64,000 bases of DNA from Thermocatellispora tengchongensis (GCF_014202315.1 NZ_JACHGN010000001.1:21757-85756), one strand, 5' to 3'. Counted from the first letter of the stretch, positions 5,745-45,688 are shown. Numbers and translations are program-made. The notes: generated by a model from the sequence alone, not told the origin.

Positions 5745-6678
5745 GGCCGCGCACCCGCTTGAACGCGGTGCTGAGCGCGAAGGCGCTGCCGTAGCCGACC
5801 CGCGAGGCCACCGCCCCGACCGTGGCCCCCGGCTCGCGCAGCAGGTCGGCCGCCAGGGCGAGCCGCCAGCTCGTCAGGTACGCCATCGGCGGCTCGCCCA
5901 CCAGGGCGGTGAACGAGCGCGCCAGCGTGGCGCGCGACACGCCGGCCTCGGCGGCGAGGCCGGCGACCGTCCACGGCCGGGCGGGCTGGTCGTGGATGAG
6001 CCGCAGCACCCGGCCGACCACCGGGTCGCCCAGCGCGCGGTACCACCCCGGCGCCTCCGCCTCGGGCCGGGAGAACCAGGCGCGCAGCACCGCGATCAGC
6101 AGCAGGTCGAGCAGCCGGTCCAGCACCACCTCCTGGCCCGGCTCGTCGCGCACGATCTCGTGCGCCAGCAGCGGCACGACGGGGGTGTCGCAGGCGTCGC
6201 CCGGGAGCACCAGCAGCCGGGGCAGCGCGCGCAGCAGGCGGTCGCCGACCTCGGAGTCCATCTGGTAGGTGCCGATCAGCATCAGCGCCGCCCCGCCCTC
6301 GCCCTCGCGCCCGTGGCCCCAGGTGCGCACGCCCTGGCTCAGCGCCTCGGCCAGGTCGCGGCCGTCGGGTGTGGCGCAGCGCTCGCCGGGGTGGATCACG
6401 ACCTGCGGCGGCGTGGCCGGATCGTCGGCGAAGGTGTACGGATCGGGGCCGCGGGTGACCGCGATGTCGCCGGGCGCCAGGCGCACCGGCTCGTCGCCGT
6501 CGAAGAACGCCCACGCGTGCCCGCGCACCATCGCCACCAGCGACAGCGGGGCCTCGTCCTGCACCCTGACCGACCACGGGGGCTGCAGGATCGCGCGGAG
6601 CAGGAACGCGCCCCTGGCCCGCGGCCCGTCGAGCAGCCCTCTCAGCGCGTCCACGCCCCTTACCTTAACCCCGGACAC
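5689..6678 (-). CDS. AraC family transcriptional regulator (cupin + AraC HTH)
   Basis: C-terminal AraC-type HTH pair (VASRVGYGSAFALSTAFKRVRGLSPQAYR) with an N-terminal cupin-like sensor region. Its 3' end overlaps the convergent gene by 56 bp. Confidence 0.85.
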   Translation of the reverse strand: MSGVKVRGVDALRGLLDGPRARGAFLLRAILQPPWSVRVQDEAPLSLVAMVRGHAWAFFDGDEPVRLAPGDIAVTRGPDPYTFADDPATPPQVVIHPGERCATPDGRDLAEALSQGVRTWGHGREGEGGAALMLIGTYQMDSEVGDRLLRALPRLLVLPGDACDTPVVPLLAHEIVRDEPGQEVVLDRLLDLLLIAVLRAWFSRPEAEAPGWYRALGDPVVGRVLRLIHDQPARPWTVAGLAAEAGVSRATLARSFTALVGEPPMAYLTSWRLALAADLLREPGATVGAVASRVGYGSAFALSTAFKRVRGLSPQAYREARPEPDRAGS

Positions 6679-6751: not shown

Positions 6752-7588
6752 ATGGACACGAACGCGAACACGACGGTGGTCATCGGCGGCACGGGCAAGA
6801 CCGGGCGCCGGGTGGTGGAGCGGCTGCGGGAACGCGGGCTGCCCGTGCGCGCGGCGTCGCGGTCCTCGCAGCCGCCCTTCGACTGGCAGGAGCCGGCGAC
6901 CTGGGCGGGCGCGCTGCGCGGCGCGAGCGCGGCCTACATCACGTACTACCCCGACCTGAGCTTCCCCGGCGCGGCGGAGTCGATCCGCGCGCTGGCGGAG
7001 CTCGCGGTGCGGAACGGCGTACGGCGGCTGGTGCTGCTGTCCGGCCGCGGCGAGGAGGAGGCGGAGGTGAGCGAGCGCGGCGTGCGCGAGTCGGGAGCGG
7101 AGTGGACGATCCTGCGCGCCGCGTGGTTCATGCAGAACTTCGACGAGTACTACCTGCTCGGCCCGGTGCTGAGCGGCACGATCGCGCTCCCGGCCGGCGA
7201 CATCGGGGAGCCGTTCCTGGACGTGGAGGACATCGCGGACGTCGCGGTCGCGGCGCTCACCGAGGACGGGCACGGGGGCCGCGTCTACGAGCTGACCGGG
7301 CCCCGGCTGCTGACCTTCGCCGAGGCCGCGGCCGAGATCTCCGCGGCCTCGGGCCGGCAGGTGCGGTACGTGCGGATCGCCCCGGAGGAGTACACGGCGT
7401 GGCTGGTGGAGCAGGGGACTCCGGCCGAGGAGGCGCCGCTGCTCACCGGGCTGTTCACCCGGGTGCTCGACGGGCGCAACGCGCACGTGACCGACGGCGT
7501 GCACCAGGCGCTCGGCCGCCCGGCCCGCGACTTCGCCGACTACGCCAAGGCCGCCGCCGCGACCGGCGTCTGGTCGGCGCCCCACTGA
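6752..7588 (+). CDS. NmrA-like NAD(P)-binding oxidoreductase
   Basis: N-terminal VIGGTGKTGRRVV Rossmann motif and overall NmrA/HSCARG architecture. It lies divergent to the AraC regulator. Confidence 0.85.
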   Translation: MDTNANTTVVIGGTGKTGRRVVERLRERGLPVRAASRSSQPPFDWQEPATWAGALRGASAAYITYYPDLSFPGAAESIRALAELAVRNGVRRLVLLSGRGEEEAEVSERGVRESGAEWTILRAAWFMQNFDEYYLLGPVLSGTIALPAGDIGEPFLDVEDIADVAVAALTEDGHGGRVYELTGPRLLTFAEAAAEISAASGRQVRYVRIAPEEYTAWLVEQGTPAEEAPLLTGLFTRVLDGRNAHVTDGVHQALGRPARDFADYAKAAAATGVWSAPH

Positions 7589-9861: not shown

Positions 9862-10139
9862 CACCGTTCTCCCCCTTCCGTCTCGTCGTCCCGACGACCG
9901 TACGAACGGGGCGCGCGTGAGCGGCAGAGCCGGATGTCGTCTCTTGACCAGGACAAATCACCTGGGTCCCGGCCCTTCCGGGCAGCGGGTGGGGGCGCAT
10001 CGGAAACTTGGCGCCTTGACAGCACCGAAACTACAAGCAGGTGATTTGAGTGGCGGACTTCTACAGAGAAGCCGGGCCGAACAGAATGAGAATCTGGTAA
10101 TGTCCAAATGGCATCACGGCTTGCCTTCCCCGAGAGCAT

Positions 10140-10156
10140 GGTGAAAGAATTTCACC
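10140..10156. promoter_or_regulatory. perfect inverted repeat GGTGAAA-GAA-TTTCACC in an AT-rich intergenic region
   Basis: Read directly from the sequence. It lies in a ~450-bp region of lower GC between divergent transcription units, upstream of the 10.4–19.6 kb operon. Confidence 0.3.
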
Positions 10157-10408
10157 TTCCACGATGCCGCTCCGAGCCGACGCACACGTGCACAACACAT
10201 CGGTCCCGGCCCGCCGAAGCCGCCAATCCGTCCGCGGCGCCACATCGGCCCGCCGGCACCGCCGCACCATCTGAGGTGCTACCAGGCGTCACCGTTTCGG
10301 ATAGTCCTTATCGCACCGTAAGTGATAATCACATTTGACGCCGAAAAGCCCAATTATTCATGTTCATTACCTTCCCAGCAGATCACCGTAGGTCTAATAT
10401 CAGGGTTT

Positions 10409-11632
10409 GTGTCTCGGCATGCGGCGGATTTACCGGACAAGCAAGTATGGCCTCCGAGTGGCAGCGACGCCTCGCCCGGACATTCCCTTGACCATGCCTC
10501 CGATCATGACTTCGATCAGGTCCTGACGTACGACTGGGCCGGCGACGCGGAACCCGTACCCGCGATCGAATGGCGAAAGATCATTGTTTTCGGGTCGGCG
10601 CTGGCCGCGCTCGCGGCGGTGGGCGCGGCGGGGGCGGCCGTACTCCTCACCGCCGAACCGCCCGCGGCCCGCAGCCCCGTCGCGGGCGCCGCCCCCGCAC
10701 CCGGCCGGGCCGCCCCCGGCCCCGCGACCGCGGCCTCGGCCTCGCCCTCGGCCTCGCCCGGCGTACGGGCCCAGCTCACGCCGGCCCAGGCGGCGCGGGT
10801 CCACGACCGCTTCCAGCGCGGGCTGTCCGCCGCCCAGGCGGCGATGGACGCCGAGGCGATCGGCCGCTACGAGCACGGCCTGGCGCTGGAGATGACCCGG
10901 GCGGGCATCGAGACCGCGCGGATGCGGGGAGAGAAGGTGCCGGCCGGGATGTGGCCCAAGCCGCGCGTGTGGGTGCCGCGGCACGCCGAGGGCCGCCCCG
11001 ACTGGTTCGTCGCCGTCTCCCACGAGCCCGGCGTGGCGCGCATCAGCGACGTCATGGAACGTACGCGCGCCGGGTGGCGGCTGGTCGCCTCGGCCGCCGA
11101 CACCCGGGCCACCCCGGAGCCGCTGCCCGCCATCGCCACCGACGCCGCGGGATACGCCACCAGCCTGTCCCAGGACGCGACCGGGCTGCGCGGCACCCCG
11201 CGCCAGATCGTCCGGGCCCACCTGGCCGCCCTGCGCGGCATGCGCGAGGACCCGCGCTTCGCCGACGGCCCGTGGACCGGCGCGGCCGTGCGCTTCTGGC
11301 GCGCGGAACGCGACCGGCTCGAACGGGCCGGCTGGCGGCTGTCCCTGTCGTACATACAGGAAGGACGAATACGCGCGCTGAGGACCGCCGACGGGGGCGC
11401 CCTCGTGTGGTACTCCGCGCGCTCCACCGACACGCGTACGGCCGAGCGGCCGGGCGCCCTGGTGAAGCTGAAAGGAGCGGCCGCGGTACGAACCGCGGAC
11501 AAGTCGTTCGCCCGCTGGGCGAGCGCCACGTACGGACGGATGTACGTCGCGTACATACCACCCGCCGGTTCGGCCGAGCGTGTCCGCGTGATGGGGGAGT
11601 GGACCGATCTCTTGGAGAGCGACGGCGCCTGA
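10409..11632 (+). CDS. hypothetical membrane-anchored protein
   Basis: GC3 becomes strongly biased only from about 10560, and there is one TM helix (IIVFGSALAALAAVGAAGAAVLL). The only in-frame start codons are GTG at 10409 and GTG at 10322, so the start is uncertain. Confidence 0.6.
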   Translation: MSRHAADLPDKQVWPPSGSDASPGHSLDHASDHDFDQVLTYDWAGDAEPVPAIEWRKIIVFGSALAALAAVGAAGAAVLLTAEPPAARSPVAGAAPAPGRAAPGPATAASASPSASPGVRAQLTPAQAARVHDRFQRGLSAAQAAMDAEAIGRYEHGLALEMTRAGIETARMRGEKVPAGMWPKPRVWVPRHAEGRPDWFVAVSHEPGVARISDVMERTRAGWRLVASAADTRATPEPLPAIATDAAGYATSLSQDATGLRGTPRQIVRAHLAALRGMREDPRFADGPWTGAAVRFWRAERDRLERAGWRLSLSYIQEGRIRALRTADGGALVWYSARSTDTRTAERPGALVKLKGAAAVRTADKSFARWASATYGRMYVAYIPPAGSAERVRVMGEWTDLLESDGA

Positions 11633-11658
11633 CGCCGGCCTGGAGAGGAGACACACTC

Positions 11659-13224
11659 ATGGCGAGATCATCGAGACGACCCGCACGCGCCACAGTGATC
11701 ACGGCCGGTGCCGCGCTGGGAGTCTTCGCACTGGGCGCCGGGCTCGGCGTCGTCGTCTCCGGAGGCTCCGAAGGCACGATGCGGCTCGCCGCCGGCACAT
11801 ATCGGCTGGACGACGACGGCCGGCTCCTCACCACCGAGCCTCCCGCCTCGGAGCAGGAGGCCGCGCCCCTCTCCGACGCCGACATGGGCAGCACGATCAC
11901 GGACGCCGCGGATGACGAACGCGTCTGCCTGACCACGACCACCGACGGCCGGGCCGTCGGCTCCTCCGGACGCGACTGCACCCCGCTGCCGTTCGTGGGC
12001 GGTGCGGCGGGCGCGTTACGCCCCGGCAACCCCAAGCATCCCCCACGCCCGACGGCGACCCCCAGCGCGACGGGCAGCCCCACCGCCACCCCCAGCGCGA
12101 CGGGCAGCCCCACCCGCACCCGGACGGCCCCGCCGTCCCCCCGCCCGACGCCCACCATGACGGGCACGCCCCGCCCGAGCGCGCCGCCCACGCGCACGCG
12201 CACGCCGGCCCCGACCGCCAGCCCCAGGCCGTCCACCACGGCGACCGGGTGCGTGCTGCGCGCGCCCAACGGGGTCGCGCTCACCCCGGCCATGCCGCAG
12301 AGCGGCAACGGCGACCGGGGCCGGCCGCGGCCCACCGGATGCCCGGCGCCCACGACGTCCGTGAGCGCGAGCACCGGCGTGACCCCCACCGCCCCGGGCA
12401 CGCCGACCCGCGACGGCGGCAACCGCGAGATCCTGCCCCCGCGCACCCCCGACGCGCCCCCCACCCAAGCGCCCCGCCCCGGCGCGCCGACCGCCGACGC
12501 ACCCGGTCCCGGCGCACCCACCGCCGACGCACCCGGCCCCGGCGCACCCACCGCCGACGTCCCCGCCCCCGCGCCCAGCGCGGGTGACGGGAGCCGCGAC
12601 GTGGTCCCGCCGACCACGCCCAGCCAGGCGCCCACCGGCAGCCCCTCGCCGGGCACCGAGGGTGGCGGCGACGGGGCGGACAGCCTGCCGGTGTTCCGCG
12701 ACCCCGAGCTGCTGCGGCGGGCGTACGAGGCGCTGGGCATCGGCACGCGCGACTACATCGACGAGAACGGCGTGTGGGACCTCAACGTGGCGCCGCCCGG
12801 CACCCCGCCGTGCCGCGACTACACCGAGGAGGAGCTGGAGCGCCTGCGCGAGCAGGCGGGCGACCGGGGCCTGCCCACCGGCGTGATCCCGCGCGACTCG
12901 TGCCTGTGGCCGGCCTTCATCCGCTGGCTGCTCGCCGACCCGGCGCCGGGCGAGGTGAGCAACTGGACCAAGTTCACCGGCCTGCCGGACCGGAACCTGG
13001 ACATCGAGGTCGTCGATCCGGCGAGCCCGGCACCCGTCGCGACGCCGGCCGTCCCGGCGCAGGAGGTGCCACAGGCGCCGGATCGGCCCGGCGACGGCCG
13101 TGACGACGGCCGTGATGACGGCCCCGACGACGGCTACGGGCGGCCGGAAGGCTACGAGGAGGGGCAGGTGAACGGGTTCGGCCGGGACGAGGCCGGGCCG
13201 GATGGTCCGGGATTCACGGAATGA
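11659..13224 (+). CDS. secreted Pro/Thr-rich repeat protein
   Basis: ATG at 11659 with a GGAGAGGAG RBS, a signal-peptide-like N-terminus, PTATPSATGS x2 and APTADAPGPG x3 repeats, and an acidic C-terminal tail. Confidence 0.7.
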   Translation: MARSSRRPARATVITAGAALGVFALGAGLGVVVSGGSEGTMRLAAGTYRLDDDGRLLTTEPPASEQEAAPLSDADMGSTITDAADDERVCLTTTTDGRAVGSSGRDCTPLPFVGGAAGALRPGNPKHPPRPTATPSATGSPTATPSATGSPTRTRTAPPSPRPTPTMTGTPRPSAPPTRTRTPAPTASPRPSTTATGCVLRAPNGVALTPAMPQSGNGDRGRPRPTGCPAPTTSVSASTGVTPTAPGTPTRDGGNREILPPRTPDAPPTQAPRPGAPTADAPGPGAPTADAPGPGAPTADVPAPAPSAGDGSRDVVPPTTPSQAPTGSPSPGTEGGGDGADSLPVFRDPELLRRAYEALGIGTRDYIDENGVWDLNVAPPGTPPCRDYTEEELERLREQAGDRGLPTGVIPRDSCLWPAFIRWLLADPAPGEVSNWTKFTGLPDRNLDIEVVDPASPAPVATPAVPAQEVPQAPDRPGDGRDDGRDDGPDDGYGRPEGYEEGQVNGFGRDEAGPDGPGFTE

Positions 13225-15158
13225 ACACGCCCACCGGAGCCGGCAACGTCGTCCTGGGCGAAGGGGCGGCGTGGGTGAGCGAGCACGGCGCCCACCTGAT
13301 GGACTACGCCGGGCACCACCTCGGTCCCGAGCAGGCGCTCTCGGCGGTGGGCGGCACGCTGGCCGCGTGCCTGCGCCGCCCGATGCCCGGCGACGCCACG
13401 CCCCGGGCGCGGCTGCTCGCCGTGCTGCGCCGCGAGTGCCGCGTCCTCGGCACGGGACCGGAGCGGGAGTACGTGCCCGGCACCGGTCCCGGCATGCCCG
13501 ACGCCGAGGTGATCGAGCGCGGCTGGACGCTGGCCGAGCCCCTGGGCACCGAGGCACTGCGGCTGATGTACCGGCACGGGCTCGGCCCCAAGGACCTGGC
13601 CTACGTGCTCGCGCTGCCCGAGCGCGACGTCGGCAGGCTGGTGACCAGGACCCAGGACCTGGTCGAGACGCTGGTCAGCGGGCTGGATGCGATCCAGCAC
13701 GGGCGGCACGCGTGCGCGGCGCTCGAACCGCTGGTCAACATGCTGTTCTCCGAGGAGTACGGCCCGCGCCGCCCGGCCGAGTTCGACGCCGACCGCGCGG
13801 CCCTGCTCAGCCACCTGGCCGAGTGTTCGGTGTGCACTCGGCCGATCTCCATCCGCTACACGGTCCCGCAGATGATCTCCCATCCACCGGTCGCGCCACT
13901 GTCCGCCGAGGTGCGGGAGCGGCTGCTCGCCCGGCTGCCGGCCACGGTGCAGCGCCCGACCGTGGTCCCGCTCACCGACCCCCTGCCGCCGCCCGCGGCG
14001 TCCGGCACCCCCGGCCCCTCTGACGGCGAGGGCGGCCCGGAGGAGATCACGCTGCCCAACATCGAGGCCGGCCTGCCCCCGGCCCCCCTCCGGCCGGGAC
14101 AGGACACGCCGCTGTACGACGCGCTGCTGTCCCAGGTGTGGGCCCGCGAGGTGCTGGCCCGCACCGAGAATCCCCCCGCCAGACCGGGCACAACGCCAGG
14201 CGCCCAGCCCCCCGCCAGGCCGGCGCAGCCGCCCGCCTTCGGCCACGGACCCGTTTCCGGCTCGAACCCCGCTCCCGCGCCCACCCACCCCACCCCGCGG
14301 GAGCAGGAGTTCGAGATCCCCCTCCCCGCCCCGGTCCTCCTGCCTCCCGGCGAGCGCCGGCAGGACCGGGGCGGGGAGGCACGGAGCGCCTTCTGGGACG
14401 GAGACTGGGACGACGAGGACTGGGGCGGGAAGGACTGGGGCGACGACCCGACCGTGGAGTTCAGCGCGGTCCCACGCCGGCCGCACGACCCACCGCCCCC
14501 CGAGCCGCCCGCCGCCGCCCCCGAACCGCACCGAACGCGAACCGGCCTACGTACCGGCGAGCGAACCGGCGAGCGAACCGGCGAGCGAAGGGGCGAACGA
14601 ACCAAGGGACGCAGTGGGGACCGGGCCGCAGGCAGGACCCGCACCCGCTCGCGGCTCGTGGCGCGCCTCGGCACCACGACCGTGAAGATCACCGTCATCG
14701 CCGTCGCGGGCACGGCCGGCGTCTGGACCGGCATCAACCTGCTCGGCCCGGCGATCGAGACCGCGCCCCCACTGAACCCCCCGGGGTCGGCCGCCCCCTC
14801 GGGCCCCGGCACCCTCGCCGGAGCGGGGTCCGGGACCGGGCCGGGAACCGGCGCGCCGGTGGGCCCGGCACCGCTGTCGGTGCCACCGGAGGTGACGCTG
14901 AACGACTACGGCCAGGGCACCATGCGCCTGACGCTGGCGGACGAGGACGCCGGCCCCGCCGACTGGCGGATCGCGGCGCCCGGCCTGGTCGCCGAGCCGT
15001 CCAGCGGCACGCTGAAACCCGGCCGGACCCAGGTGGTCACGCTACGGGCGCTGCGCGTCCGCCACTGGTGCGGCGCCCCGGCCCCCGTCACCGCGCCGCT
15101 GACCCTGTACGGACCGAAGGGCTCGGCCACCACGTCGGTGCGCTGGAGCACCTGCTGA
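13221..15158 (+). CDS. membrane protein with sigma-70 region-4-like HTH and anti-sigma-type zinc finger (HxxxCxxC)
   Basis: ATGA overlap with the upstream gene. LGPKDLAYVLALPERDVGRLVTRTQDL resembles sigma region 4, and SHLAECSVCTRP is a zf-HC2 motif. A Pro-rich linker, one TM helix near residue 500, and an extracytoplasmic C-terminal domain follow. Confidence 0.7.
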   Translation: MNTPTGAGNVVLGEGAAWVSEHGAHLMDYAGHHLGPEQALSAVGGTLAACLRRPMPGDATPRARLLAVLRRECRVLGTGPEREYVPGTGPGMPDAEVIERGWTLAEPLGTEALRLMYRHGLGPKDLAYVLALPERDVGRLVTRTQDLVETLVSGLDAIQHGRHACAALEPLVNMLFSEEYGPRRPAEFDADRAALLSHLAECSVCTRPISIRYTVPQMISHPPVAPLSAEVRERLLARLPATVQRPTVVPLTDPLPPPAASGTPGPSDGEGGPEEITLPNIEAGLPPAPLRPGQDTPLYDALLSQVWAREVLARTENPPARPGTTPGAQPPARPAQPPAFGHGPVSGSNPAPAPTHPTPREQEFEIPLPAPVLLPPGERRQDRGGEARSAFWDGDWDDEDWGGKDWGDDPTVEFSAVPRRPHDPPPPEPPAAAPEPHRTRTGLRTGERTGERTGERRGERTKGRSGDRAAGRTRTRSRLVARLGTTTVKITVIAVAGTAGVWTGINLLGPAIETAPPLNPPGSAAPSGPGTLAGAGSGTGPGTGAPVGPAPLSVPPEVTLNDYGQGTMRLTLADEDAGPADWRIAAPGLVAEPSSGTLKPGRTQVVTLRALRVRHWCGAPAPVTAPLTLYGPKGSATTSVRWSTC

Positions 15159-15196
15159 CCGAACCGCCTCACCGCAGATCGGGAAAGGACCCGGCA

Positions 15197-16381
15197 ATGA
15201 CCGAGCTATCCCCCCGTACGCAGTCGAACCACTCCTCCCCCGCCCACGCGGCCCCGCCTCTCGGCGAACACCCCGTGGCCAAACAGCCCACCGACACACA
15301 GCTCACCAACACACCGTTCACCGACACCCCGCTGATTGACGCGCCGCTCACCGGAAAGGCGCCCGCGCACGCGGCGCCGTCCACGCCTACGCCCACGCCA
15401 CCGTCCACGCCCGCGTCCGGTCCGGGCCACGCGCCGGTGGACCAGTTCACCGACCCGGTGCCGCTGACCGCCGAGCACCTGCTCACCAACCGGCGCCCCG
15501 AGCCCGCGGGCGGGTGGCGGCGGATGGTCTGGCTGCTGTCCGGCAAGCGGATCATCCCCGGCGAGTCCGCCGCCGAGATCGAGCGCCGCATGCTCATCGC
15601 CCAGGCTCAGATCCCGGTCGCCAGCGGCCACCACCGGATCGCGGTGATGAGCCTGAAGGGCGGCGTCGGCAAGACCACGACCACCGCCGCGCTGGGCAAC
15701 ACGCTGGCGTCGCTGCGCGGCGACCGGGTGATCGCGGTGGACGCCAACCCCGACCGGGGCACGCTCGGCCTGAAGGTCAAGTCCGAGACCGCGGCCACGA
15801 TCCGCACCCTGCTCGCCGAGGCCCCGAACATCGCACGGTACGCCGACGCCCGCGCCTTCACCTCGCAGTCGCCGGCGCGGCTGGAGGTCCTGGCCTCCGA
15901 CACCGACCCCGCGGTGAGCGAGGCGTTCAACGCCGACGACTACCGGACGGTGGCCGGGCTGATCGAGCGCTACTACTCGATCTGCATCACCGACTGCGGC
16001 ACCGGCCTGCTGCACGGCGCGATGGGCGCGACCCTGGAGCTCGCCGACCAGATCGTGCTGGTCAGCCTGGTCGCCGTGGACGGGGCCAGCTCCGCCGCCG
16101 CGACCCTGGACTGGCTGACCGCGCACGGCTACGGCGAGCTGGTCAAGAACGCGATCGTGGTGCTCAACGCCGTGGAGCCGAAGTCCGACGTGGACCTCAA
16201 CCTGCTGGAGCGCCACTTCGACCAGCGCTGCCGCACGGTGATCCAGGTGCCGTTCGACCCGCACCTGAAGGAGGGCGCCGAGGTGGACCTGCTGCGGCTC
16301 AAGCCCGCCACGCGGGCGGCGTACCTGCGGCTGGCCGCCGCCGCGGGGCAGGCGTTCGGCCGGCCCAAGCGGAGCCACTAG
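15197..16381 (+). CDS. MinD/ParA-family P-loop ATPase with N-terminal extension (Ssd/CpaE-like)
   Basis: Deviant Walker A motif MSLKGGVGKTTTTAALG, an A' motif (VIAVDANPDRG) and a Walker B motif (ICITDCG). The ~130-aa N-terminal extension is Pro/Thr-rich. An RBS (GGGAAAGGA) precedes the ATG. Confidence 0.8.
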   Translation: MTELSPRTQSNHSSPAHAAPPLGEHPVAKQPTDTQLTNTPFTDTPLIDAPLTGKAPAHAAPSTPTPTPPSTPASGPGHAPVDQFTDPVPLTAEHLLTNRRPEPAGGWRRMVWLLSGKRIIPGESAAEIERRMLIAQAQIPVASGHHRIAVMSLKGGVGKTTTTAALGNTLASLRGDRVIAVDANPDRGTLGLKVKSETAATIRTLLAEAPNIARYADARAFTSQSPARLEVLASDTDPAVSEAFNADDYRTVAGLIERYYSICITDCGTGLLHGAMGATLELADQIVLVSLVAVDGASSAAATLDWLTAHGYGELVKNAIVVLNAVEPKSDVDLNLLERHFDQRCRTVIQVPFDPHLKEGAEVDLLRLKPATRAAYLRLAAAAGQAFGRPKRSH

Positions 16382-17130
16382 TGCCCCCGGTCATCGAGGA
16401 CCCCGTGCTGGACTGGGGCCTGCGGCCCCGCCGGCACATCCTCCGCTGGGCGCTGCTCGCGCTCGCGGGGGCGGTCGTCGTGGCCGGGGCCATCTGGCTG
16501 GTCGTCCGGCTGGCGGCGGGCACCTCCGATCCCGCGCCCTCCGAGCCGGCCCCGACCGCCACGGCGTTGACGCTGGCGCGGCCGAGCGCGTACCACGGGC
16601 CCGCCGGATATCCGATCGGGTTCCCCCGTACGGAGCTGGGCGCCGCGTCGGCCGCCGCCGCGGCCCTGGAGGCGGCCTGGACGCTCGACGGCACCGAGGC
16701 CGAGCAGGCCGCCATCCTGTACGCCCCGCCCGAGCAGCACCAGGCCGCCAGGGACGGCGCCCGCGCGGCGGCACGCGACTGGCGCCAGACCCTGGGCCTC
16801 CCCACGGACGGCGACCTGCCCGAGGGCGCCGCCATGCGCACCACCACGATCGGCGTCCAGTGGCGCAAGCGGGCCGACGATCTCGTGCTCGTCTCCGTCC
16901 TGGTGCAGGTCAACGCCACGAAGGGCGTCGAGGACACCGGCGCCACCTACTCCAGCCCGTACGCCCTGAACCTGCTCATGGCCTGGCGGGACGACCTGCG
17001 GGGCGAGGGCCGGGGCGACTGGGTGAACGTGCCCGACACGCAGGCCACCGTCGTACCCAAGGTCGCCCTCCCCGGCACCGACGAGTTCCGCTCCGCGGGC
17101 TGGTACCCCATCGCGGGGCCGGCCCAATAG
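16381..17130 (+). CDS. hypothetical single-pass membrane protein
   Basis: GTG start overlapping the upstream TAG by 1 nt, in frame with ORF 15514..17130. One TM helix (LALAGAVVVAGAIWLVV) is followed by a periplasmic domain. GC3 is high. Confidence 0.65.
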   Translation: MPPVIEDPVLDWGLRPRRHILRWALLALAGAVVVAGAIWLVVRLAAGTSDPAPSEPAPTATALTLARPSAYHGPAGYPIGFPRTELGAASAAAAALEAAWTLDGTEAEQAAILYAPPEQHQAARDGARAAARDWRQTLGLPTDGDLPEGAAMRTTTIGVQWRKRADDLVLVSVLVQVNATKGVEDTGATYSSPYALNLLMAWRDDLRGEGRGDWVNVPDTQATVVPKVALPGTDEFRSAGWYPIAGPAQ

Positions 17131-17155
17131 CCCGACCCGAGTTCGTGGAGGATTC

Positions 17156-18886
17156 ATGACCCCCCGCAGTTCCTCCCGGCGCCACAAGCTGGTCTCCGGC
17201 CTCCTCCTCGCCGGGGTCTCCGCTACGACCGGCGCGGTCATCGCATATCCGTGGGCCGCCGCGGCCGATCCGGCCTCACCCGAGGCGGCCTTACCCTCGG
17301 GCGTCGAGACGCCCGACCCCACGTCGGCCCCGGCTCCCCAGGAGATCCCCCCGGGGCCGTCCGAGAACGAGGAGCCGACGGACGCCGCGACGGACGAGAA
17401 CACCGCCCCTCCCCCCGAGGAGCAGACCCAGCCCCCCGCGGACGACCCGCCCTCCGCCGAGACACCCACCGAGGCGCCCACCGACACACCGCCGGAGACT
17501 CCCACCGAGGCGCCCACAGAGCCCCCGACCGAGACACCGACTGAGGCGCCGACCGATTCGGAGACGTCCCCGCCCACCGAGACGGCGCGGCCGTCCCTGC
17601 GCCCGACGTACACGCCGCCGTCCAGGCACCGCAACCGCGAGCGCCGCCCCGCCCGTCGCGCCGCCCCCACCCCGGCCCCCTCGACCAGCACGCCGACGGC
17701 CACGACCACCACGCCCCCGAGCCAGGAGCCGATCGAGACACCGACCAATACACCGACCAATACCCCCATCAAGACACCGACCAAGACACCGACCGAGGCG
17801 CCCACCCCCACACCCACCCCCACGCCCACGGGCACGGGTTCCACCGCACCGCCGACCACCTCACCCCCGGCCACGACCGCACCCCCCAAGTCCACCCCGA
17901 AACCGAAGAAGACCCCACCCGCGAAGAAGACCCCGAAACCCAAGACCACGCCGAAGCCCAAGGCCACCTCGAAGCCGAAGCCCACGCCCAAGACGACCCC
18001 CAAGACGACCCCGAAGGCGACGCCCAAGGCGACCCCGAAGGCGACGCCCAAGACCACACCCAAGACGACGCCCAAGACGACGCCCAAGCCCAAGACGGGC
18101 TCCACGGCGGCGCCCACCAAGACCCCGCCCAAGGCACCCCCGAAGACGAGCCCCGCCCCGAGCCCGACCCCGGCACAAACGCAGAGCCCGACACGAACAC
18201 CACCGCAGACGCAGACACCACCCACCCAGGCGCCGCCTCAAACCCAGGCGCCGACGCTGCAGGCGACCCCCACCCCCACGACTCCGCCCACCGTCTCGGC
18301 GTCGCAGCGGGCGACGGTCACCCCCACCCCCACCCCCACCCCCACGACCACGACCACGACCACGACCGCCGGCCCCGTGGGACCGCCGCCGGCGCAGCCG
18401 CAACCCGTGGCGCCCGTGCCGCCGGTGCAGCACCAGCAGGTGCCGCCGGCCGCGGCGAAGAAGGTGCTGCCGATGCCGCCGTTGAAGCGCGCGTCGTCCT
18501 GCCTGCCCTACGACCCGGCGGGCTGCTGGAGCCTGGCCCCGTGGCGGGGCCGCACGGTGTCCGGGATCGCGGCCACCCCGGCCGCGGCGGCCAAGCAGTT
18601 CGCCGAGCCGGCGGGCACCCCGAGGTGGGCCTTCGCGCCGCCGGTCGTGCCCCCGCCGCAGGCGGCCGTCACCCCGACCGCCACGCCCACGCCGACCCCC
18701 ACGACCACCGTGCCCACGACCACTGTGCCCACGACCACTGTGCCCACGACCGTGCCAACGACGACCGTGCCAACGACGACCGCGCCACCCGCCACCACGT
18801 CGGCCAAGCGCGCCGCGCCGCGCGCCGGCTGCTGGTCCTTCAGCCCGTCCGCGCTCTGCGCCAGGTCTGAGGAGCGCCGCCCATGA
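17156..18886 (+). CDS. secreted mucin-like Pro/Thr/Lys-rich repeat protein
   Basis: Signal peptide (LLLAGVSATTGAVIAYPWAAAA), then (TEAPTDTPPE)n and (TPKT/A)n repeat tracts, with Cys-containing C-terminal segments. Confidence 0.7.
   Translation: MTPRSSSRRHKLVSGLLLAGVSATTGAVIAYPWAAAADPASPEAALPSGVETPDPTSAPAPQEIPPGPSENEEPTDAATDENTAPPPEEQTQPPADDPPSAETPTEAPTDTPPETPTEAPTEPPTETPTEAPTDSETSPPTETARPSLRPTYTPPSRHRNRERRPARRAAPTPAPSTSTPTATTTTPPSQEPIETPTNTPTNTPIKTPTKTPTEAPTPTPTPTPTGTGSTAPPTTSPPATTAPPKSTPKPKKTPPAKKTPKPKTTPKPKATSKPKPTPKTTPKTTPKATPKATPKATPKTTPKTTPKTTPKPKTGSTAAPTKTPPKAPPKTSPAPSPTPAQTQSPTRTPPQTQTPPTQAPPQTQAPTLQATPTPTTPPTVSASQRATVTPTPTPTPTTTTTTTTAGPVGPPPAQPQPVAPVPPVQHQQVPPAAAKKVLPMPPLKRASSCLPYDPAGCWSLAPWRGRTVSGIAATPAAAAKQFAEPAGTPRWAFAPPVVPPPQAAVTPTATPTPTPTTTVPTTTVPTTTVPTTVPTTTVPTTTAPPATTSAKRAAPRAGCWSFSPSALCARSEERRP
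17455..18110 (+). repeat. in-frame low-complexity tandem repeats (PTEAPTE... and TPKTTPKATPK...)
   Basis: Visible nucleotide periodicity (gag/acc/ccc/aag/acg units) encoding PT(E/K) repeats inside the 17156..18886 CDS. Confidence 0.6.
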
Positions 18887-19635
18887 TCACCCGCATGTTC
18901 GTACGGACCGCCGCCCTCGCCGCCGTCCTCACGCTGGCCGTGAGCTCCGCCGCGTTCGCCCGTGAGAACGGGACGGCGGTGAGCCCGTGCCCGTCCGGGG
19001 TGGCCCTGGAGGGCTGGGGCGAGCCGGCCTTCTGCGAGGAGTTCGAGACCGTCCTCGATCCGGCGGAGTGGGTGCTGTACGACTCGCCGGGCCACGCGGG
19101 CAACGGCATCCGCTCGCCGGGGCAGGCGTTCATCGGCGGCGGCTCGCTGTTCCTGTACGGCACGGCCGACGGCACCACGGCCGGGATGGCGACCAGGTAC
19201 AGCCAGCCGTACGGCCGGTGGGAGGCGCGCATCCGGCTGTACCCGGGGGCCGGCTCCTACCATCCGGTGGCGCTGCTGTGGCCGGACGGCGGGGGCGGGA
19301 ACGTGCGCAGCGCGACCGGCGAGGAGATCGACTACCTGGAGGTCATCGACGATCCGGAGCGGCAGCGGGCCAACTTCTTCCTGCACGTGGGCGGACGCCA
19401 GGAGCAGGCGCACGCGAACGTGGACATGACCCAGTGGCACACGTACGCGGTGGAGAACACCCCCGACGGCGTGGTCGGCTACCTGGACGGGCGGGAGTGG
19501 TTCCGCTCCTCCCAGCACACCACGAGCCCGATGTCGGCCACGTTGCAGCTCGACTGGTTCCCCGGCGAGGGCACGCCGGGCGAGGCGTGGATGGAGGTGG
19601 ACTACCTGCGCATCTACCGCTCCCCGGCGGGCTAG
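18883..19635 (+). CDS. secreted glycoside hydrolase family 16 (beta-glucanase-like)
   Basis: Signal peptide and the GH16 catalytic motif EIDYLE. ATGA overlap with the upstream gene. Confidence 0.85.
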   Translation: MITRMFVRTAALAAVLTLAVSSAAFARENGTAVSPCPSGVALEGWGEPAFCEEFETVLDPAEWVLYDSPGHAGNGIRSPGQAFIGGGSLFLYGTADGTTAGMATRYSQPYGRWEARIRLYPGAGSYHPVALLWPDGGGGNVRSATGEEIDYLEVIDDPERQRANFFLHVGGRQEQAHANVDMTQWHTYAVENTPDGVVGYLDGREWFRSSQHTTSPMSATLQLDWFPGEGTPGEAWMEVDYLRIYRSPAG

Positions 19636-19651
19636 CTCGGGCCAGCTCGGG

Positions 19652-20002
19652 CTAGCTCGATTCCTGGCCGCGATCGTCGGCGAGATCGTCGGCGAGTTCG
19701 TCGGTGAGGAGCAGGTCGCGGCGTACCAGGCCCGAGCGGTACGCGCCCCGCCCGATCATGTGCGCCGCGACCGGGCCGGTGACGAGCTGGAACAGGCCGG
19801 TCAGGGCGAGGATGCCGATGTCGAGCGGGGCGTCGGTGCGCAGGCCGACCGCGACCAGGGTCAGCACCATCCCGATCACCTGCGGCTTGGCGCCCAGGTG
19901 CAGGCGGGACAGGAGGGTCGGGAAGCGGAGCAGGCCGATCCCGGCGGTGAGCGACAGCACCGCGCCGACCAGCAGCAGCGCCCCGGCGACGAGGTCACTC
20001 AT
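19652..20002 (-). CDS. mnhG: Na+/H+ antiporter subunit G (MnhG/MrpG)
   Basis: 116-aa membrane protein with the MnhG-type pattern. It is the last gene of a co-oriented seven-subunit mnh/mrp operon. Confidence 0.8.
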   Translation of the reverse strand: MSDLVAGALLLVGAVLSLTAGIGLLRFPTLLSRLHLGAKPQVIGMVLTLVAVGLRTDAPLDIGILALTGLFQLVTGPVAAHMIGRGAYRSGLVRRDLLLTDELADDLADDRGQESS

Positions 20003-30355: not shown

Positions 30356-30955
30356 ATGGGGGACTTTCTCGGCGTCGCGCTGGGGTTTCCCACCGTGCTT
30401 TTCAGCTTTCTGCTGCTGGTCGTCGTCGGGTTCTGGGTGGCCGTGCTGCTCGGCGGGGCCGATCTCGACCTGCTGGACTCCGACGGGGGCGTGGGGCCGG
30501 CCGCGGGGCTCGGGCTGGGCGGGGTGCCCGCCACGGTGGCGGTCTCGTTGCTGGTCGCGTTCGGGTGGTTCATCAGCCTGGCGGGGGCGGCGCTGCTGGA
30601 GGGGACGGCGGCGCGGGCAGGGGTGCTCGTGGTGGCCCTCGGGGGCGCGTGGGGGCTGGCCCGGCTGGCCGTGCTGCCGCTGCGACGGGTGTTCGAAGAG
30701 GAGGCGGCGCCCTCGCGGGCGGACTTCGTCGGGCGCATGTGCGTGGTCAGGACGGGGTCGGTGACGGCGGACTTCGGGCAGGCCGAGGTGACCGCCGAAG
30801 ACGGGGCCACCGCGCTGGTCCAGGTGCGGCTGCTGGGCGAAGAGAGACTGACGGCCGGTGACACGGCCCTGATCTACGAGTACGACGCGGACGGCGAGTT
30901 CTTCTGGGTCATGCCGTACGACGCCGCGCTTGACCCAGACAAAGTCATCAAATAG
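30356..30955 (+). CDS. NfeD-like membrane protein (OB-fold C-terminal domain)
   Basis: N-terminal TM helices plus a C-terminal beta-barrel segment (GRMCVVRTGSVTADFGQAEVTAEDGATALVQVRLLGEE). NfeD proteins are the canonical operon partners of SPFH/flotillin proteins. Confidence 0.8.
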   Translation: MGDFLGVALGFPTVLFSFLLLVVVGFWVAVLLGGADLDLLDSDGGVGPAAGLGLGGVPATVAVSLLVAFGWFISLAGAALLEGTAARAGVLVVALGGAWGLARLAVLPLRRVFEEEAAPSRADFVGRMCVVRTGSVTADFGQAEVTAEDGATALVQVRLLGEERLTAGDTALIYEYDADGEFFWVMPYDAALDPDKVIK

Positions 30956-30968
30956 GGGACAGAAGCAT

Positions 30969-33032
30969 ATGGACGTGATCTCCACGGGGTTCGGGATTCT
31001 GCTCGCCGTCGTCCTTCTCGTCGTCATCGGGCTGCTCATCGTGGTCAGCCGGCTGTTCCGCAAGGTCGAGCAGGGCAAGGCGCTGATCGTCTCGAAGGTC
31101 AACAAGGTGGACGTCACCTTCACCGGCAAGATCGTGCTCCCGGTGATCCACAAGGCCGAGGTCATGGACATCTCGGTGAAGACCATCGAGATCGAGCGGA
31201 CCGGCCATGAAGGGCTGATCTGCCGCGACAACATCCGGGCCGACATCCGGATCACCTTCTTCGTCCGCGTCAACAAGACGGTCGAGGACGTGATCAAGGT
31301 GGCGCAGGCCATCGGCACGGCCCGGGCCAGTGACCAGGAGACCCTTCAGGAGCTGTTCAACGCCAAGTTCTCCGAGGCGCTGAAGACCGTCGGCAAGCAG
31401 CTCGACTTCGTCGATCTCTACACCAAGCGCGACGAGTTCCGCGACCAGATCATCCGGGTGATCGGCACCGACCTCAACGGCTACAGCCTGGAGGACGCGG
31501 CGATCGACTTCCTGGAGCAGACCCCGATGTCGCAGCTCGACCCGGCGAACATCCTCGACGCCCAGGGCATCCGGAAGATCACCGAGCTGACGGCGTCCGA
31601 GAACGTGCGCACCAACGAGTACCGGCGGCAGGAGGAGAAGGAGATCACGCGCCAGAACGTGGACGCGCGTGAGGCGATCCTGGAGCTGGAGCGGCGGCAG
31701 GCCGACGCGGAGATCAAGCAGAAGCGCGAGATCGAGACCATGAAGGCCCGCGAGGAGGCCGAGATCGCCCGGGTGCAGGCGGAGGAGCGGCTGAAGGCGC
31801 AGACGGCCGCGATCCGCACCGACGAGCAGATCGGCATCCAGCACGAGAACCGGGCCCGGGAGATCGCGGTCGCGGAGAAGAACCGCGAGCGGGTGATCGC
31901 GATCGAGACCGAGCGGATCGAGAAGGACCGCATGCTGGAGGTCATCGCCAGGGAGCGGGAGACCGAGCTGTCCAGGATCGCCAAGGACAAGGAGGTCGAG
32001 GGCGAGAAGCGGTCGATCGCCGAGGTGGTCCGGGAGCGGATCGCGGTGGAGAAGACCGTGGCCGAGCAGGAGGAGAACATCAAGCGGCTGCGCGTGGTCG
32101 AGGAGGCCGAGCGCACCCGCCAGGCCGTGGTCATCCAGGCCGAGGCCGAGGCGCAGGAGAACCTGGTCAAGGACATCAAGGCGGCCGAGGCCGCCGAGGC
32201 GGCGGCCAAGCACCGGGCGCGCGAGGAACTGGTGCTCGCCGAGGCGCGGCAGCAGGCCGCGGAGCTGGACGCCCGCGCCAAGATCAGGCTCGCGGAGGGC
32301 TTGCAGGCCGAGGCGGCGGCGGCGGGCCTGGCCGAGGTCCAGGTGCGCGAGCGGAACGCGGCGGCGATCGAGCGCGTGGGCCGCGCCGAGGCCGCCGTGG
32401 AGCGGGAGAAGGCGGTGGCGGCGGCCGACGCCGTGCGCGAGAAGCTGAAGGCCGAGGCCGAGGGCCTGGGCGAGAAGCTGAAGGCCGAGGCCGAGGGCCT
32501 GGCCGAGAAGGCGACCGCGATGGCCGCGCTGGACGAGGCCACGCGCCACCACGAGGAGTACCGCCTGCGCCTGGAGGCCGAGAAGGAGATCAGGCTGGCC
32601 GACATCAACGTGCGCCGCGAGGTCGCCGAGGCGCAGGCCACCGTGCTGGCCACGGGCCTGGAGAAGGCCAACATCGACATCGTGGGCGGCGACAACGTCT
32701 TCTTCGACCGGCTGGTCAACTCGATCACGGCCGGCAAGAGCGTGGACGGGTTCGTGCAGCACTCGGACGTCGCCGGCGCGCTGGCGGAGCCGTACCTGAA
32801 CGGGAGCGCGAGCCTGTCCGCGGACCTGGCGCGGGTGCTCGGCGCGGTGGACACGGCCGGCGTGCGCGACCTCACCCTGTCCGCGCTGCTGCTGAAGCTG
32901 ATCAAGGCGGGCGGCCCGGACGAGGACCGCATGCGGCAGCTCCTTGAGACCGCGCAGCACCTCGGCGTGGCCGAGACGCCGGTCGCCGCCCTGTCCGCCG
33001 CCGCCCCCGCCGTGCCCGCTTCGGTCAGGTGA
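30969..33032 (+). CDS. flotillin-family SPFH/band-7 protein (YqiK/FloT-like)
   Basis: ATG at 30969 lies 14 bp after the NfeD stop. An N-terminal TM helix is followed by an SPFH domain and ~400 aa of EA-rich coiled coil with AEAEG repeats. Confidence 0.9.
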   Translation: MDVISTGFGILLAVVLLVVIGLLIVVSRLFRKVEQGKALIVSKVNKVDVTFTGKIVLPVIHKAEVMDISVKTIEIERTGHEGLICRDNIRADIRITFFVRVNKTVEDVIKVAQAIGTARASDQETLQELFNAKFSEALKTVGKQLDFVDLYTKRDEFRDQIIRVIGTDLNGYSLEDAAIDFLEQTPMSQLDPANILDAQGIRKITELTASENVRTNEYRRQEEKEITRQNVDAREAILELERRQADAEIKQKREIETMKAREEAEIARVQAEERLKAQTAAIRTDEQIGIQHENRAREIAVAEKNRERVIAIETERIEKDRMLEVIARERETELSRIAKDKEVEGEKRSIAEVVRERIAVEKTVAEQEENIKRLRVVEEAERTRQAVVIQAEAEAQENLVKDIKAAEAAEAAAKHRAREELVLAEARQQAAELDARAKIRLAEGLQAEAAAAGLAEVQVRERNAAAIERVGRAEAAVEREKAVAAADAVREKLKAEAEGLGEKLKAEAEGLAEKATAMAALDEATRHHEEYRLRLEAEKEIRLADINVRREVAEAQATVLATGLEKANIDIVGGDNVFFDRLVNSITAGKSVDGFVQHSDVAGALAEPYLNGSASLSADLARVLGAVDTAGVRDLTLSALLLKLIKAGGPDEDRMRQLLETAQHLGVAETPVAALSAAAPAVPASVR

Positions 33033-43559: not shown

Positions 43560-43720
43560 GACCGATCTCCTCCCGTACCGGCACCCCGTCTGGGCGCCCT
43601 TTCACCCACCGGTCGGAACCGGCACGCCTTCCTCGACATCCCACCCCCAAGATTGCGCAAAGAATGCCCGGAAAGTGCTGATCTTCCAGCAGGGCAGGGG
43701 GCAGACCTGCGGAAACGTCA

Positions 43721-43760
43721 CATGCTAACGAGCATGCTAACTAACATGCGAGTTAGCATG
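43721..43760. promoter_or_regulatory. composite operator-like element: CATGCTAAC x2 direct repeats plus inverted copy GTTAGCATG
   Basis: Read directly from the sequence in the divergent promoter region between the YciI gene and the AlbA_2-domain regulator gene. Confidence 0.4.
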
Positions 43761-43763
43761 TAG

Positions 43764-43800
43764 TTGGGTGGCCGAGGGGACGTTGGGTGGCCGAGGGGAC
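43764..43800 (+). repeat. 18-bp tandem duplication (ttgggtggccgaggggac x2) abutting the ATG at 43801
   Basis: Read directly from the sequence. It contains a purine-rich RBS-like GAGGGGAC in each copy. Confidence 0.7.
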
Positions 43801-45549: not shown

Positions 45550-45629
45550 GGCAGGACCGTCCGAGCGCAGGTGAGGACGGACGGGCGCGGCCACGGCGGG
45601 GCTGAGGGGGCCGCCCGGTAGGGCCGGGG

Positions 45630-45658
45630 GGTGGCGGGTGGGTTTGCCGCCCGCCACC
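45630..45658. terminator. GC-rich hairpin (GGTGGCGGG-N11-CCCGCCACC) between convergent genes
   Basis: Read directly from the sequence. There is no clear T-tract, so this could be a factor-dependent or bidirectional terminator. Confidence 0.3.
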
Positions 45659-45688
45659 TGTGCGCGGCCGCGCGAGGACACGCGGGGT

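Follow-up and report, generated by a model that had tools for sequence, protein, structure and literature searches.

The DNA analyzed here is a window of 64,000 nucleotides (nt) from Thermocatellispora tengchongensis, a member of the Streptosporangiaceae (GCF_014202315.1 NZ_JACHGN010000001.1:21757-85756), and all positions are counted from its first letter. At 10409-19635 the window carries seven genes on the + strand, g1 to g7, which consist of an invariant three-gene core, g3-g4-g5, plus the accessory genes g1, g2, g6 and g7. The g3 product is a divergent extracytoplasmic function (ECF)-sigma-like domain that is fused to its own zinc anti-sigma domain and tethered to the membrane, g4 encodes a MinD/ParA-family ATPase, and g5 encodes a VirB8/TcpC-like bitopic protein with an NTF2 domain. 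Each of these parts is of a known kind; what is new, in that it was not found in the literature searched, is the invariant union of a fused ECF-like sigma/anti-sigma protein, a MinD/ParA ATPase of the ESX type and a VirB8-like protein of the type IV secretion system (T4SS) type. We read the cluster, with a probability of roughly 0.4, as a Streptosporangiaceae-specific operon that has one conserved promoter and encodes a transmembrane signalling/organising module for the cell envelope.

The genes were called from a plot of third-position G+C (GC3) by frame, a simple GC3-based gene caller and analysis of open reading frames (ORFs). Raw ORF lists are crowded with spurious frames, because the window, as actinomycete DNA, is rich in G+C (74%). 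In these analyses no opposite-strand gene was found inside the cluster. As a preliminary description of this DNA had proposed, the seven genes are co-oriented and their junctions overlap or nearly abut. The overlaps are ATGA at 13221 (g2/g3), TAGTG at 16381 (g4/g5) and ATGA at 18883 (g6/g7), and the remaining intergenic gaps measure 26 nt (g1/g2), 38 nt (g3/g4) and 25 nt (g5/g6).

A scan with a g5 profile over one genome per species returned 73 loci, all of them in the Streptosporangiaceae, and the locus of Streptosporangium roseum was added to give 74. These loci represent about 10 genera, among them Streptosporangium, Microbispora, Microtetraspora, Planomonospora, Planobispora, Planotetraspora, Sphaerimonospora, Spongiactinospora and a few Nonomuraea. 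In a search of 5.8e9 proteins, homologues of g3 and g5 likewise came solely from the Streptosporangiaceae; the taxonomic reach of the cluster is thus narrow, a single actinomycete family, whose members are filamentous bacteria of the soil. Gene presence in the 74 loci was scored by tblastn with the window proteins. Matches to g4 and g5 were present in every locus and to g3 in 73, compared with 49 for g2, 46 for g1 and 42 for g7. The low-complexity g6 was scored instead by its conserved signal and C-terminal GCWxF…LC motif, and this motif-bearing form was present in 35 loci, 34 of which also have g7. The order and strand of the genes are constant, and g3, g4 and g5 occur together in 73-74 of the 74 loci. 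Microbispora and Sphaerimonospora have the core only, and Planotetraspora has the core plus an ORF rich in Pro and Thr (PT-rich) after g5. The co-conservation on which the preliminary description had staked its case therefore holds for the core but only in part for the four accessory genes.

Proteins encoded by the core

The protein encoded by g3 (13221-15158, + strand) begins with the ECF-sigma-like domain (residues ~12-160, nt 13254-13700) and continues with a zinc anti-sigma (ZAS) domain (residues ~160-245) that has the ligands C165, H198, C202 and C205. A cytoplasmic linker of about 230 disordered residues follows, with one conserved helix (consensus DTPLYDALLSQxWAREVLA), which in the window reads DTPLYDALLSQVWAREVLA (residues 297-315, nt 14109-14165). 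Next come a membrane helix (residues 484-507, nt 14670-14741) and an external PapD/MSP-like Ig domain with two conserved Cys residues (residues 545-645, nt 14853-15155). Many Arg and Lys residues precede the membrane helix, so that the N-terminus is placed in the cytoplasm. In an AlphaFold model based on 40 homologues, residues 12-245 and 545-645 are predicted with confidence. The model has the two-domain sigma2-sigma4 fold, with the sigma-like domain in a closed, inhibited arrangement of the kind that is bound by an anti-sigma factor. The HxxxCxxC motif of a ZAS domain (H198, C202 and C205) and its upstream ligand C165 are invariant in the 40 homologues and in distant ECF relatives.

These distant relatives were identified by a phmmer search of residues 1-250 against 1.84e9 representative sequences, which returned only 32 proteins. 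The distant matches (E values of 2.6e-7 to 7.8e-4) are bona fide ECF sigma factors that match Sigma70_r2 with 50-52 bits and also match r4_2 and Sigma70_ECF. They have the same ZAS and membrane-helix extension as g3, and the alignment is colinear. No ATPase or VirB8-like gene lies beside the two of them that could be placed on contigs; unlike in these two, g3 is always followed by the MinD/ParA ATPase and VirB8-like genes. With other models the similarity is slight: g3 scores 16 bits against the RsrA model TIGR03988 (cut-off 62.5), and a PDB sequence search with the g3 profile gave chance-level matches only. The preliminary description had called g3 an anti-sigma-like zinc-finger membrane protein. 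The four invariant zinc ligands bear this out, but the protein is more than that, as an ECF-sigma-like domain is fused within the same chain. With this fusion, a role in signalling is suggested at least as strongly as one in assembly.

By its architecture g3 is grouped with the ECF48/52/53 fusions, of which SCO4117 of Streptomyces coelicolor is an example (PMC5826349). The order of parts is the same, namely a sigma2-sigma4 fold, an HxxxCxxC zinc domain, a Pro-rich region, a membrane helix and an external sugar-binding or Ig-like domain, and both the fusion class and g3 are restricted to Actinobacteria (PMC5826349, PMC8999054). For the fusion class, activation by proteolysis has been proposed (PMC8999054, PMC5826349). 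Unlike in that class, the long Pro-rich region of g3 lies in the cytoplasm rather than outside, the domain outside the cell is of the PapD type instead of a carbohydrate-binding module, region 2.2 has a deletion, region 2.4 is altered, and the g3 family has no Pfam zf-HC2 match. Among 40 members of the family, the sole Pfam sigma match was one weak hit to Sigma70_r4 (E=0.13). Published ECF catalogues require Pfam sigma hits (PMC7826278), so the g3 family would have been missed by them.

The second core gene, g4 (15197-16381, + strand), has a deviant Walker A motif, LKGGVGKTT, at nt 15653-15679 (KGGVGKTT at 15656-15679) that includes the signature lysine. Its Pfam matches to CbiA (43.3 bits, cut-off 25.4) and AAA_31 (40.6 bits, cut-off 27) place it in the MinD/ParA (SIMIBI) family. 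The Walker A motif is intact in all 74 loci. The median identity of g4 is 88%, compared with 54-68% for the neighbouring genes, and it stays at 84-90% across genera, which makes g4 by far the most constrained gene of the cluster. The stop-start overlap between g4 and g5 is also kept across loci, as TAGTG or TGATG. The protein consists of a variable Pro/Thr-rich N-terminus, a conserved pre-domain that starts at about residue 84, and the ATPase domain. The motif, the family and the Pro-rich extension had all been recognized in the preliminary description, but the extension varies in length, and the orthologues range from 326 to 383 residues. The NCBI protein has 368 residues and starts 26 codons downstream of the ATG at 15197 (window 15197-15275). 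The longer form is favoured because an N-terminus reading MTE is common to the orthologues.

Within its family, g4 is neither MinD proper nor a ParA partition ATPase. It falls far below the equivalog scores for MinD (TIGR01968, 35.5 against 212.9 bits) and ParA (NF041546, 32.5 against 180 bits), and also below those for BcsQ and RepA. ParB and MinE genes are absent from the cluster and the immediate flanks that were scanned. The best PDB sequence matches, McdA and MinD, reach only E ~1e-5. In common with BcsQ, TadZ/CpaE, FlhG and MinD, g4 has the deviant Walker A motif with its signature lysine and is encoded beside membrane proteins rather than ParB, and the Pfam and NCBIfam matches to BcsQ and MinD are weak and lie over the P-loop region. 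Unlike these proteins, however, g4 is far below every equivalog cut-off and has no receiver-like domain of the TadZ type, and it is not accompanied by MinE, MinC, cellulose synthase or flagellar genes.

Relatives of g4 occur in two other settings. Paralogues with 55-67% identity and long Pro-rich N-termini lie at the serS-BPA-ADH locus of Thermomonospora, Nocardiopsis and Actinoallomurus, and none of the other six cluster genes was found beside them. In Nocardiopsis (L003 10001-13083), the serS-linked paralogue has 688 residues and overlaps the start of a universal stress protein (Usp) gene, a different partner from those in the Streptosporangiaceae triad. The second setting is plasmids, where tblastn with g4 matched 267 records. 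One plasmid relative of 589 residues is 50% identical to g4 over residues 90-394; its gene is flanked by mycP and eccD in an ESX locus on a mycobacterial plasmid, which is where espI stands in ESX-1. Another adjoins conjugation genes in Nocardiopsis. Judged by these matches, g4 belongs to an actinobacterial ATPase subfamily with further members inside type VII secretion loci. The likeness to EspI-type ATPases consists of the identity to the plasmid ESX homologue and of the shared layout of a variable Pro-rich N-terminus followed by an ATPase domain. In contrast to the EspI type, the g4 extension is about 85 residues long rather than several hundred, and no Ecc or MycP genes adjoin the cluster in the window or in the 74 loci.

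The third core gene, g5 (16381-17130, + strand), encodes an N-in bitopic protein composed of a conserved cytoplasmic N-terminal peptide (EDPxLDWxLxP), a membrane helix (residues 21-45) and an external NTF2-like domain (residues ~66-249). It had previously been described as a small single-pass membrane partner; the single pass stands, and the protein is more exactly VirB8-like. The Pfam VirB8 and TcpC models do not match g5, and the NTF2 fold is so widespread that likeness of fold alone is weak evidence of function. Distant relatives of g5 are encoded on plasmids in clusters for type IV conjugation, where they are immediately followed by genes of the VirB6-like, SCO6880-family, VirB4-like and coupling-protein types. 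Unlike the VirB8/TcpC/DotI scaffolds of T4SS, g5 has no T4SS genes nearby: neither in the window nor in the chromosomal loci did the genes scanned beside the cluster include one for VirB4, VirB6 or a coupling protein. On the plasmids examined, g4-like and g5-like genes are not adjacent.

A conserved element at the head of the cluster

Between g1 and a divergent unit on the - strand, which encodes a DUF6069 protein and a two-component system, lies an intergenic region of 544 bp (9865-10408). Its G+C content of 59%, compared with 74% for the window, is the lowest among the long intergenic regions. When 46 loci were anchored on the start codon of g1, a conserved element of about 80 nt was found at 10363-10440 (+ strand). 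Its near-invariant block reads cTTTaCCTTCCCAA-N3-ATCAC-N-GTCAGTCTAA(T/G)AT-N8-ATG TCn nGG nnT GCA TCA GAT TTn CCn G, and the conservation runs into the first ~10 codons. In the window, a -35-like TTCCCA (10372-10377) and a -10-like TAATAT (10395-10400) are separated by a 17-nt spacer and followed, after 8 nt, by the GTG at 10409. This start of g1 is supported by the orthologue alignment and by an annotated form of 407 residues. The 13-mer GTCAGTCTAATAT, with two mismatches or fewer allowed, occurs once per locus, on the + strand at the cluster head, in 72 of the 74 loci, and once in the 64-kb window.

The position of the element follows the head of the cluster, as it is placed before g1, g2 or g3, whichever gene opens the cluster; in loci without g1 it precedes g2. 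In Microbispora, Sphaerimonospora and Planotetraspora the gene that follows is g3, and there the ATG of the element opens a conserved ORF of 37 codons (MYRYASDFPxxQV..SRSDALAEHD…) whose TGA overlaps the ATG of g3 (ATGA), for example at 6352-6486 in locus L054 and 6832-6966 in locus L041. This micro-ORF is homologous to the cytoplasmic N-terminus of g1. It contains conserved rare codons that end in A or T, which points to a constraint on the DNA or RNA in addition to the peptide.

The element fits a housekeeping-type promoter that would give a leaderless or nearly leaderless mRNA. The preliminary description had noted an unusual AT-rich leader of ~450 bp. The region is indeed AT-rich, but a leader is not supported; because the conserved promoter-like element abuts the start codon of g1, the AT-rich stretch is read as a divergent promoter region. 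An ECF-type reading of the element (TTTACC-N15/16-CGT/GGTC) is possible, as it fits the copy in the window, but it fits the other loci poorly. Scans of 9865-10408 for a sigma-70 consensus and for a BldD box (TNAC-N5-GTNA) gave no match, and Rfam gave none in the region at E<=1 and none in the whole window at the gathering score.

Accessory genes, flanks and other features of the window

The accessory products all act outside the membrane. The first of them, g1 (10409-11632, + strand, GTG start), is an N-in single-pass membrane protein. Its cytoplasmic N-terminal peptide (SRxAxDLPDKQ...), which is conserved, is followed by the membrane helix, a Pro/Ala linker and, outside the cell, a DUF8094/SCO2278-like domain. 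UniRef names it DUF8094; Pfam, in the copy used, gave no match. It matches NCBIfam NF053531, the SCO2278 lipoprotein model, at E=3.7e-15 and 55.6 bits, which is below the cut-off of 210, and direct reading revealed no lipobox Cys. No report on the function of SCO2278 was found in the literature search. A profile-profile comparison of g1 with g5, made to see if g1 too is NTF2/VirB8-like, detected no relationship (probability 0.4%).

Two PT-rich proteins are encoded by g2 and g6, as the preliminary description had proposed, and tandem repeats were confirmed in both of them as well as in g3 and g4. The membrane-anchored or secreted PT-rich protein g2 (11659-13224, + strand) has a conserved two-Cys domain of 108 residues (residues 343-449; C43 and C73 of the alignment are invariant) and an acidic tail, and it has no Pfam or PDB match. 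PDB sequence searches with profiles of g1 and of this g2 domain gave chance-level matches only. The secreted PT/PK-rich protein g6 (17156-18886, + strand) starts with a Tat-like signal, SSRRHKLVSGLLLAG...AAAADP, and ends with two Cys pairs (…CLPYDPAGCW… and …GCWSFSPSALC…). Both g2 and g6 combine a Tat-like SRR signal with a small conserved domain that contains Cys. Together with g3 and g5, g1 and probably g2 have a predicted N-in topology, each with a short conserved cytoplasmic peptide.

The last gene, g7 (18883-19635, + strand), encodes a secreted protein of glycoside hydrolase family 16 (GH16), as its NCBI name also states, and matches the Pfam model PF00722 (Glyco_hydro_16) with 33.9 bits (cut-off 22). 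The S. roseum orthologue scores 24.2 bits, and this was the only Pfam match among the S. roseum orthologues, the Pfam copy used holding no DUF8094 model. The catalytic ExDxxE motif is intact in the window (EIDYLE, residues 148-153, nt 19324-19341). The earlier label of GH16 glucanase is right in family, but the acid/base Glu or the Asp is lost in 12 of the 42 orthologues, that of S. roseum included, where the motif is changed to EIDF[LM]G, EEVNFLE or EEIAFLE (loci L001, L005, L006, L009, L012, L023, L026, L044, L048, L061, L067 and L073). The changed motif suggests that g7 acts like a lectin in those species and not as a hydrolase, and the conserved role of g7 may be sugar binding and not hydrolysis.

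Locus tags at NCBI are HNP84_000031 for g1, HNP84_000032 for g2, HNP84_000035 for g5 and HNP84_000037 for g7, and the numbering from HNP84_000031 to HNP84_000037 leaves three tags for g3, g4 and g6. The protein collection contained no exact match to the window sequences of g3 and g6, which may reflect assemblies that differ in start sites or in repeat length.

Upstream of the cluster, the divergent - strand unit encodes the DUF6069 protein, a histidine kinase and a LuxR-type response regulator, and downstream the genes of an Mrp antiporter converge on g7. Among these flanking genes there is no Tad, ESX or ParB gene, in agreement with the preliminary description. A mobile element or conjugative remnant was judged unlikely, as the genes scanned near the cluster included no translocase or integrase gene and the G+C content of the cluster coding regions is that of the genome. 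Between the convergent stops of g7 and mrpG lies a near-perfect G+C-rich hairpin of ~16 bp (19626-19659) with tandem 10-mer repeats. It may be a bidirectional terminator; its folding energy of -32.4 kcal/mol is not significant relative to shuffled sequences (z = -1.39), and a scan for the intrinsic terminator consensus found nothing. In S. roseum (L001 16881-19059), genes for a GNAT acetyltransferase and a LytR-CpsA-Psr (LCP) protein lie ~2.6-3.4 kb downstream of g7. One downstream flank protein recurs in 29 loci of Streptosporangium, Planobispora and Planomonospora, at the position that the Mrp antiporter occupies in the window.

Elsewhere in the window, the region 30930-37903 looks like a separate uncharacterised three-gene unit. 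It encodes a protein of 1624 residues with DUF3686 ('ATPase involved in DNA repair'), DUF7902 and an AAA domain, and overlapping ORFs of 199 and 700 residues without a Pfam match lie upstream of it. A second region, 43560-45688, has a lower G+C content (66%) and was missed by the GC3 gene caller. It contains an ORF of 593 residues with atypical codon usage (43768-45549, + strand) and may have been acquired horizontally.

Possible function of the cluster and competing explanations

If the cluster is a signalling/organising module, the ATP-bound g4 dimer would dock on short cytoplasmic peptides, namely the N-terminus of g1 or the 37-residue product of the micro-ORF, the linker helix of g3 and the N-terminus of g5. 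This docking would assemble or position the membrane proteins into one complex, whose external Ig, NTF2 and GH16-like domains would sense the state of the wall glycan or of the PT-rich proteins. The output would be either the sigma-like domain, freed by proteolysis of the kind proposed for the ECF48/52/53 fusions, or a shift in the complex that depends on nucleotide. The polysaccharide-sensing SigI/RsgI pairs of clostridia offer an analogy only, as they involve a different type of sigma factor, no fusion and no ATPase. A more specific version of this proposal is that the ATPase, in place of a protease cascade alone, gates or spatially restricts the freeing of a sigma domain that shares a chain with its anti-sigma domain, with the VirB8-like protein and the 37-residue peptide (or the g1 tail) as partners of the ATPase. 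This version, which would amount to a novel form of control over an ECF-type sigma factor tethered to the membrane, is unlikely on present evidence.

Several observations weigh against the reading of the cluster as a signalling module. In terms of the sigma-like domain, g3 has no Pfam sigma match at E<=0.1, its family has a 3-residue deletion in region 2.2, and the WLxxIARN motif is absent from the family, which has LLAVLRRE/DC in its place; judging by these residues, the domain may not bind RNA polymerase at all. The promoter at the cluster head looks like a housekeeping promoter (TTCCCA-17-TAnnnT) and not like an ECF-type one, and thus gives no sign that g3 regulates its own operon. In the cluster and its immediate flanks, no gene for a site-1 or site-2 protease was found. 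Finally, g1, g2, g6 and g7 are dispensable in whole genera, so the sensed signal cannot depend on them.

The strongest competitor, somewhat less likely in our view than the signalling reading, is a machine that assembles or remodels a surface layer. In it g1, g3 and g5 would form a scaffold, positioned by the ATPase, which puts the PT-rich proteins in place and guides how GH16 remodels the wall glucan, and the sigma-like domain of g3 would be degenerate and structural, without a part in transcription. Both this explanation and the signalling reading hold the ATPase to be the organiser; they differ in that here g3 is treated as a scaffold. Several MinD/ParA ATPases, BcsQ, TadZ and FlhG among them, position machines of the envelope. 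An assembly role is also consistent with the presence of g4 relatives in secretion loci, with the function of VirB8-like proteins as assembly scaffolds in T4SS, with the loss of canonical region 2.2 and 2.4 residues from g3 and with the co-occurrence of g6 and g7. The LCP-family gene ~3.4 kb downstream of g7 in S. roseum and the flank protein that recurs in 29 loci point in the same direction. However, the cargo and enzyme genes g2, g6 and g7 are missing from Microbispora, Sphaerimonospora and others that keep the core, and 12 of the 42 g7 orthologues have lost a catalytic residue. The ordinary Sec/Tat-type signals of g2, g6 and g7 mean that no dedicated exporter is needed, and a mere scaffold leaves the strictly conserved zinc ligands and the closed sigma/anti-sigma arrangement of g3 unexplained. 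The preliminary description had proposed an ATPase-organised module for envelope or surface-layer assembly; the co-conserved core agrees with such a module, but nothing found shows surface-layer assembly.

It is improbable that the cluster is a domesticated fragment of a secretion or conjugation system, in which an EspI-like ATPase and a T4SS VirB8/TcpC-like protein still move protein or DNA across the membrane. The plasmid relatives of g5, which directly precede conjugation genes, and those of g4, in an ESX locus and beside conjugation genes, are in its favour. Against this, no gene for VirB4, VirD4, VirB6, Ecc or an FtsK-like translocase was found in the cluster, its immediate flanks or the orthologous loci examined, the genes scanned around the cluster include no integrase, the coding G+C content is native, and g4-like genes do not adjoin g5-like ones on the plasmids that were examined. 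The idea that g4 is an orphan Soj/ParA paralogue acting in DNA segregation beside functionally unrelated neighbours can be dismissed with some assurance, since its weak P-loop-region matches to ParA and RepA models are outweighed by scores far below the ParA and MinD equivalogs, the absence of ParB from the cluster and its immediate flanks, the invariable place of g4 between g3 and g5 in the 74 loci, where its overlapping junction is also kept, and the existence of the serS-linked paralogues, without these partner genes, as the widespread housekeeping-type copies.

Searches of the literature on Streptosporangium ParA-like genes, SCO2278 and EspI found no report on the cluster, and none was found in the literature searched on the combination of g3-g4-g5 type (ParA/VirB8/anti-sigma), the head element or the micro-ORF. 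Among the signalling proteins of Actinobacteria, ECF sigma factors with a fused anti-sigma domain count with the less well understood, and MinD/ParA ATPases in secretion loci are poorly understood too. This operon joins the two, and a VirB8-like scaffold with them, in a unit that is invariant and coupled in translation. With three genes, one promoter and one micro-ORF, it is a compact and testable system for how such ATPases talk to membrane complexes, and it bears on whether divergent sigma-like domains still act as sigma factors. The g3 family also shows that structure-based searches can extend the ECF catalogue. If the ATPase does gate the release of the sigma-like domain, the gating would make transcription depend on the nucleotide that is bound and on a particular site in the envelope of the hypha.

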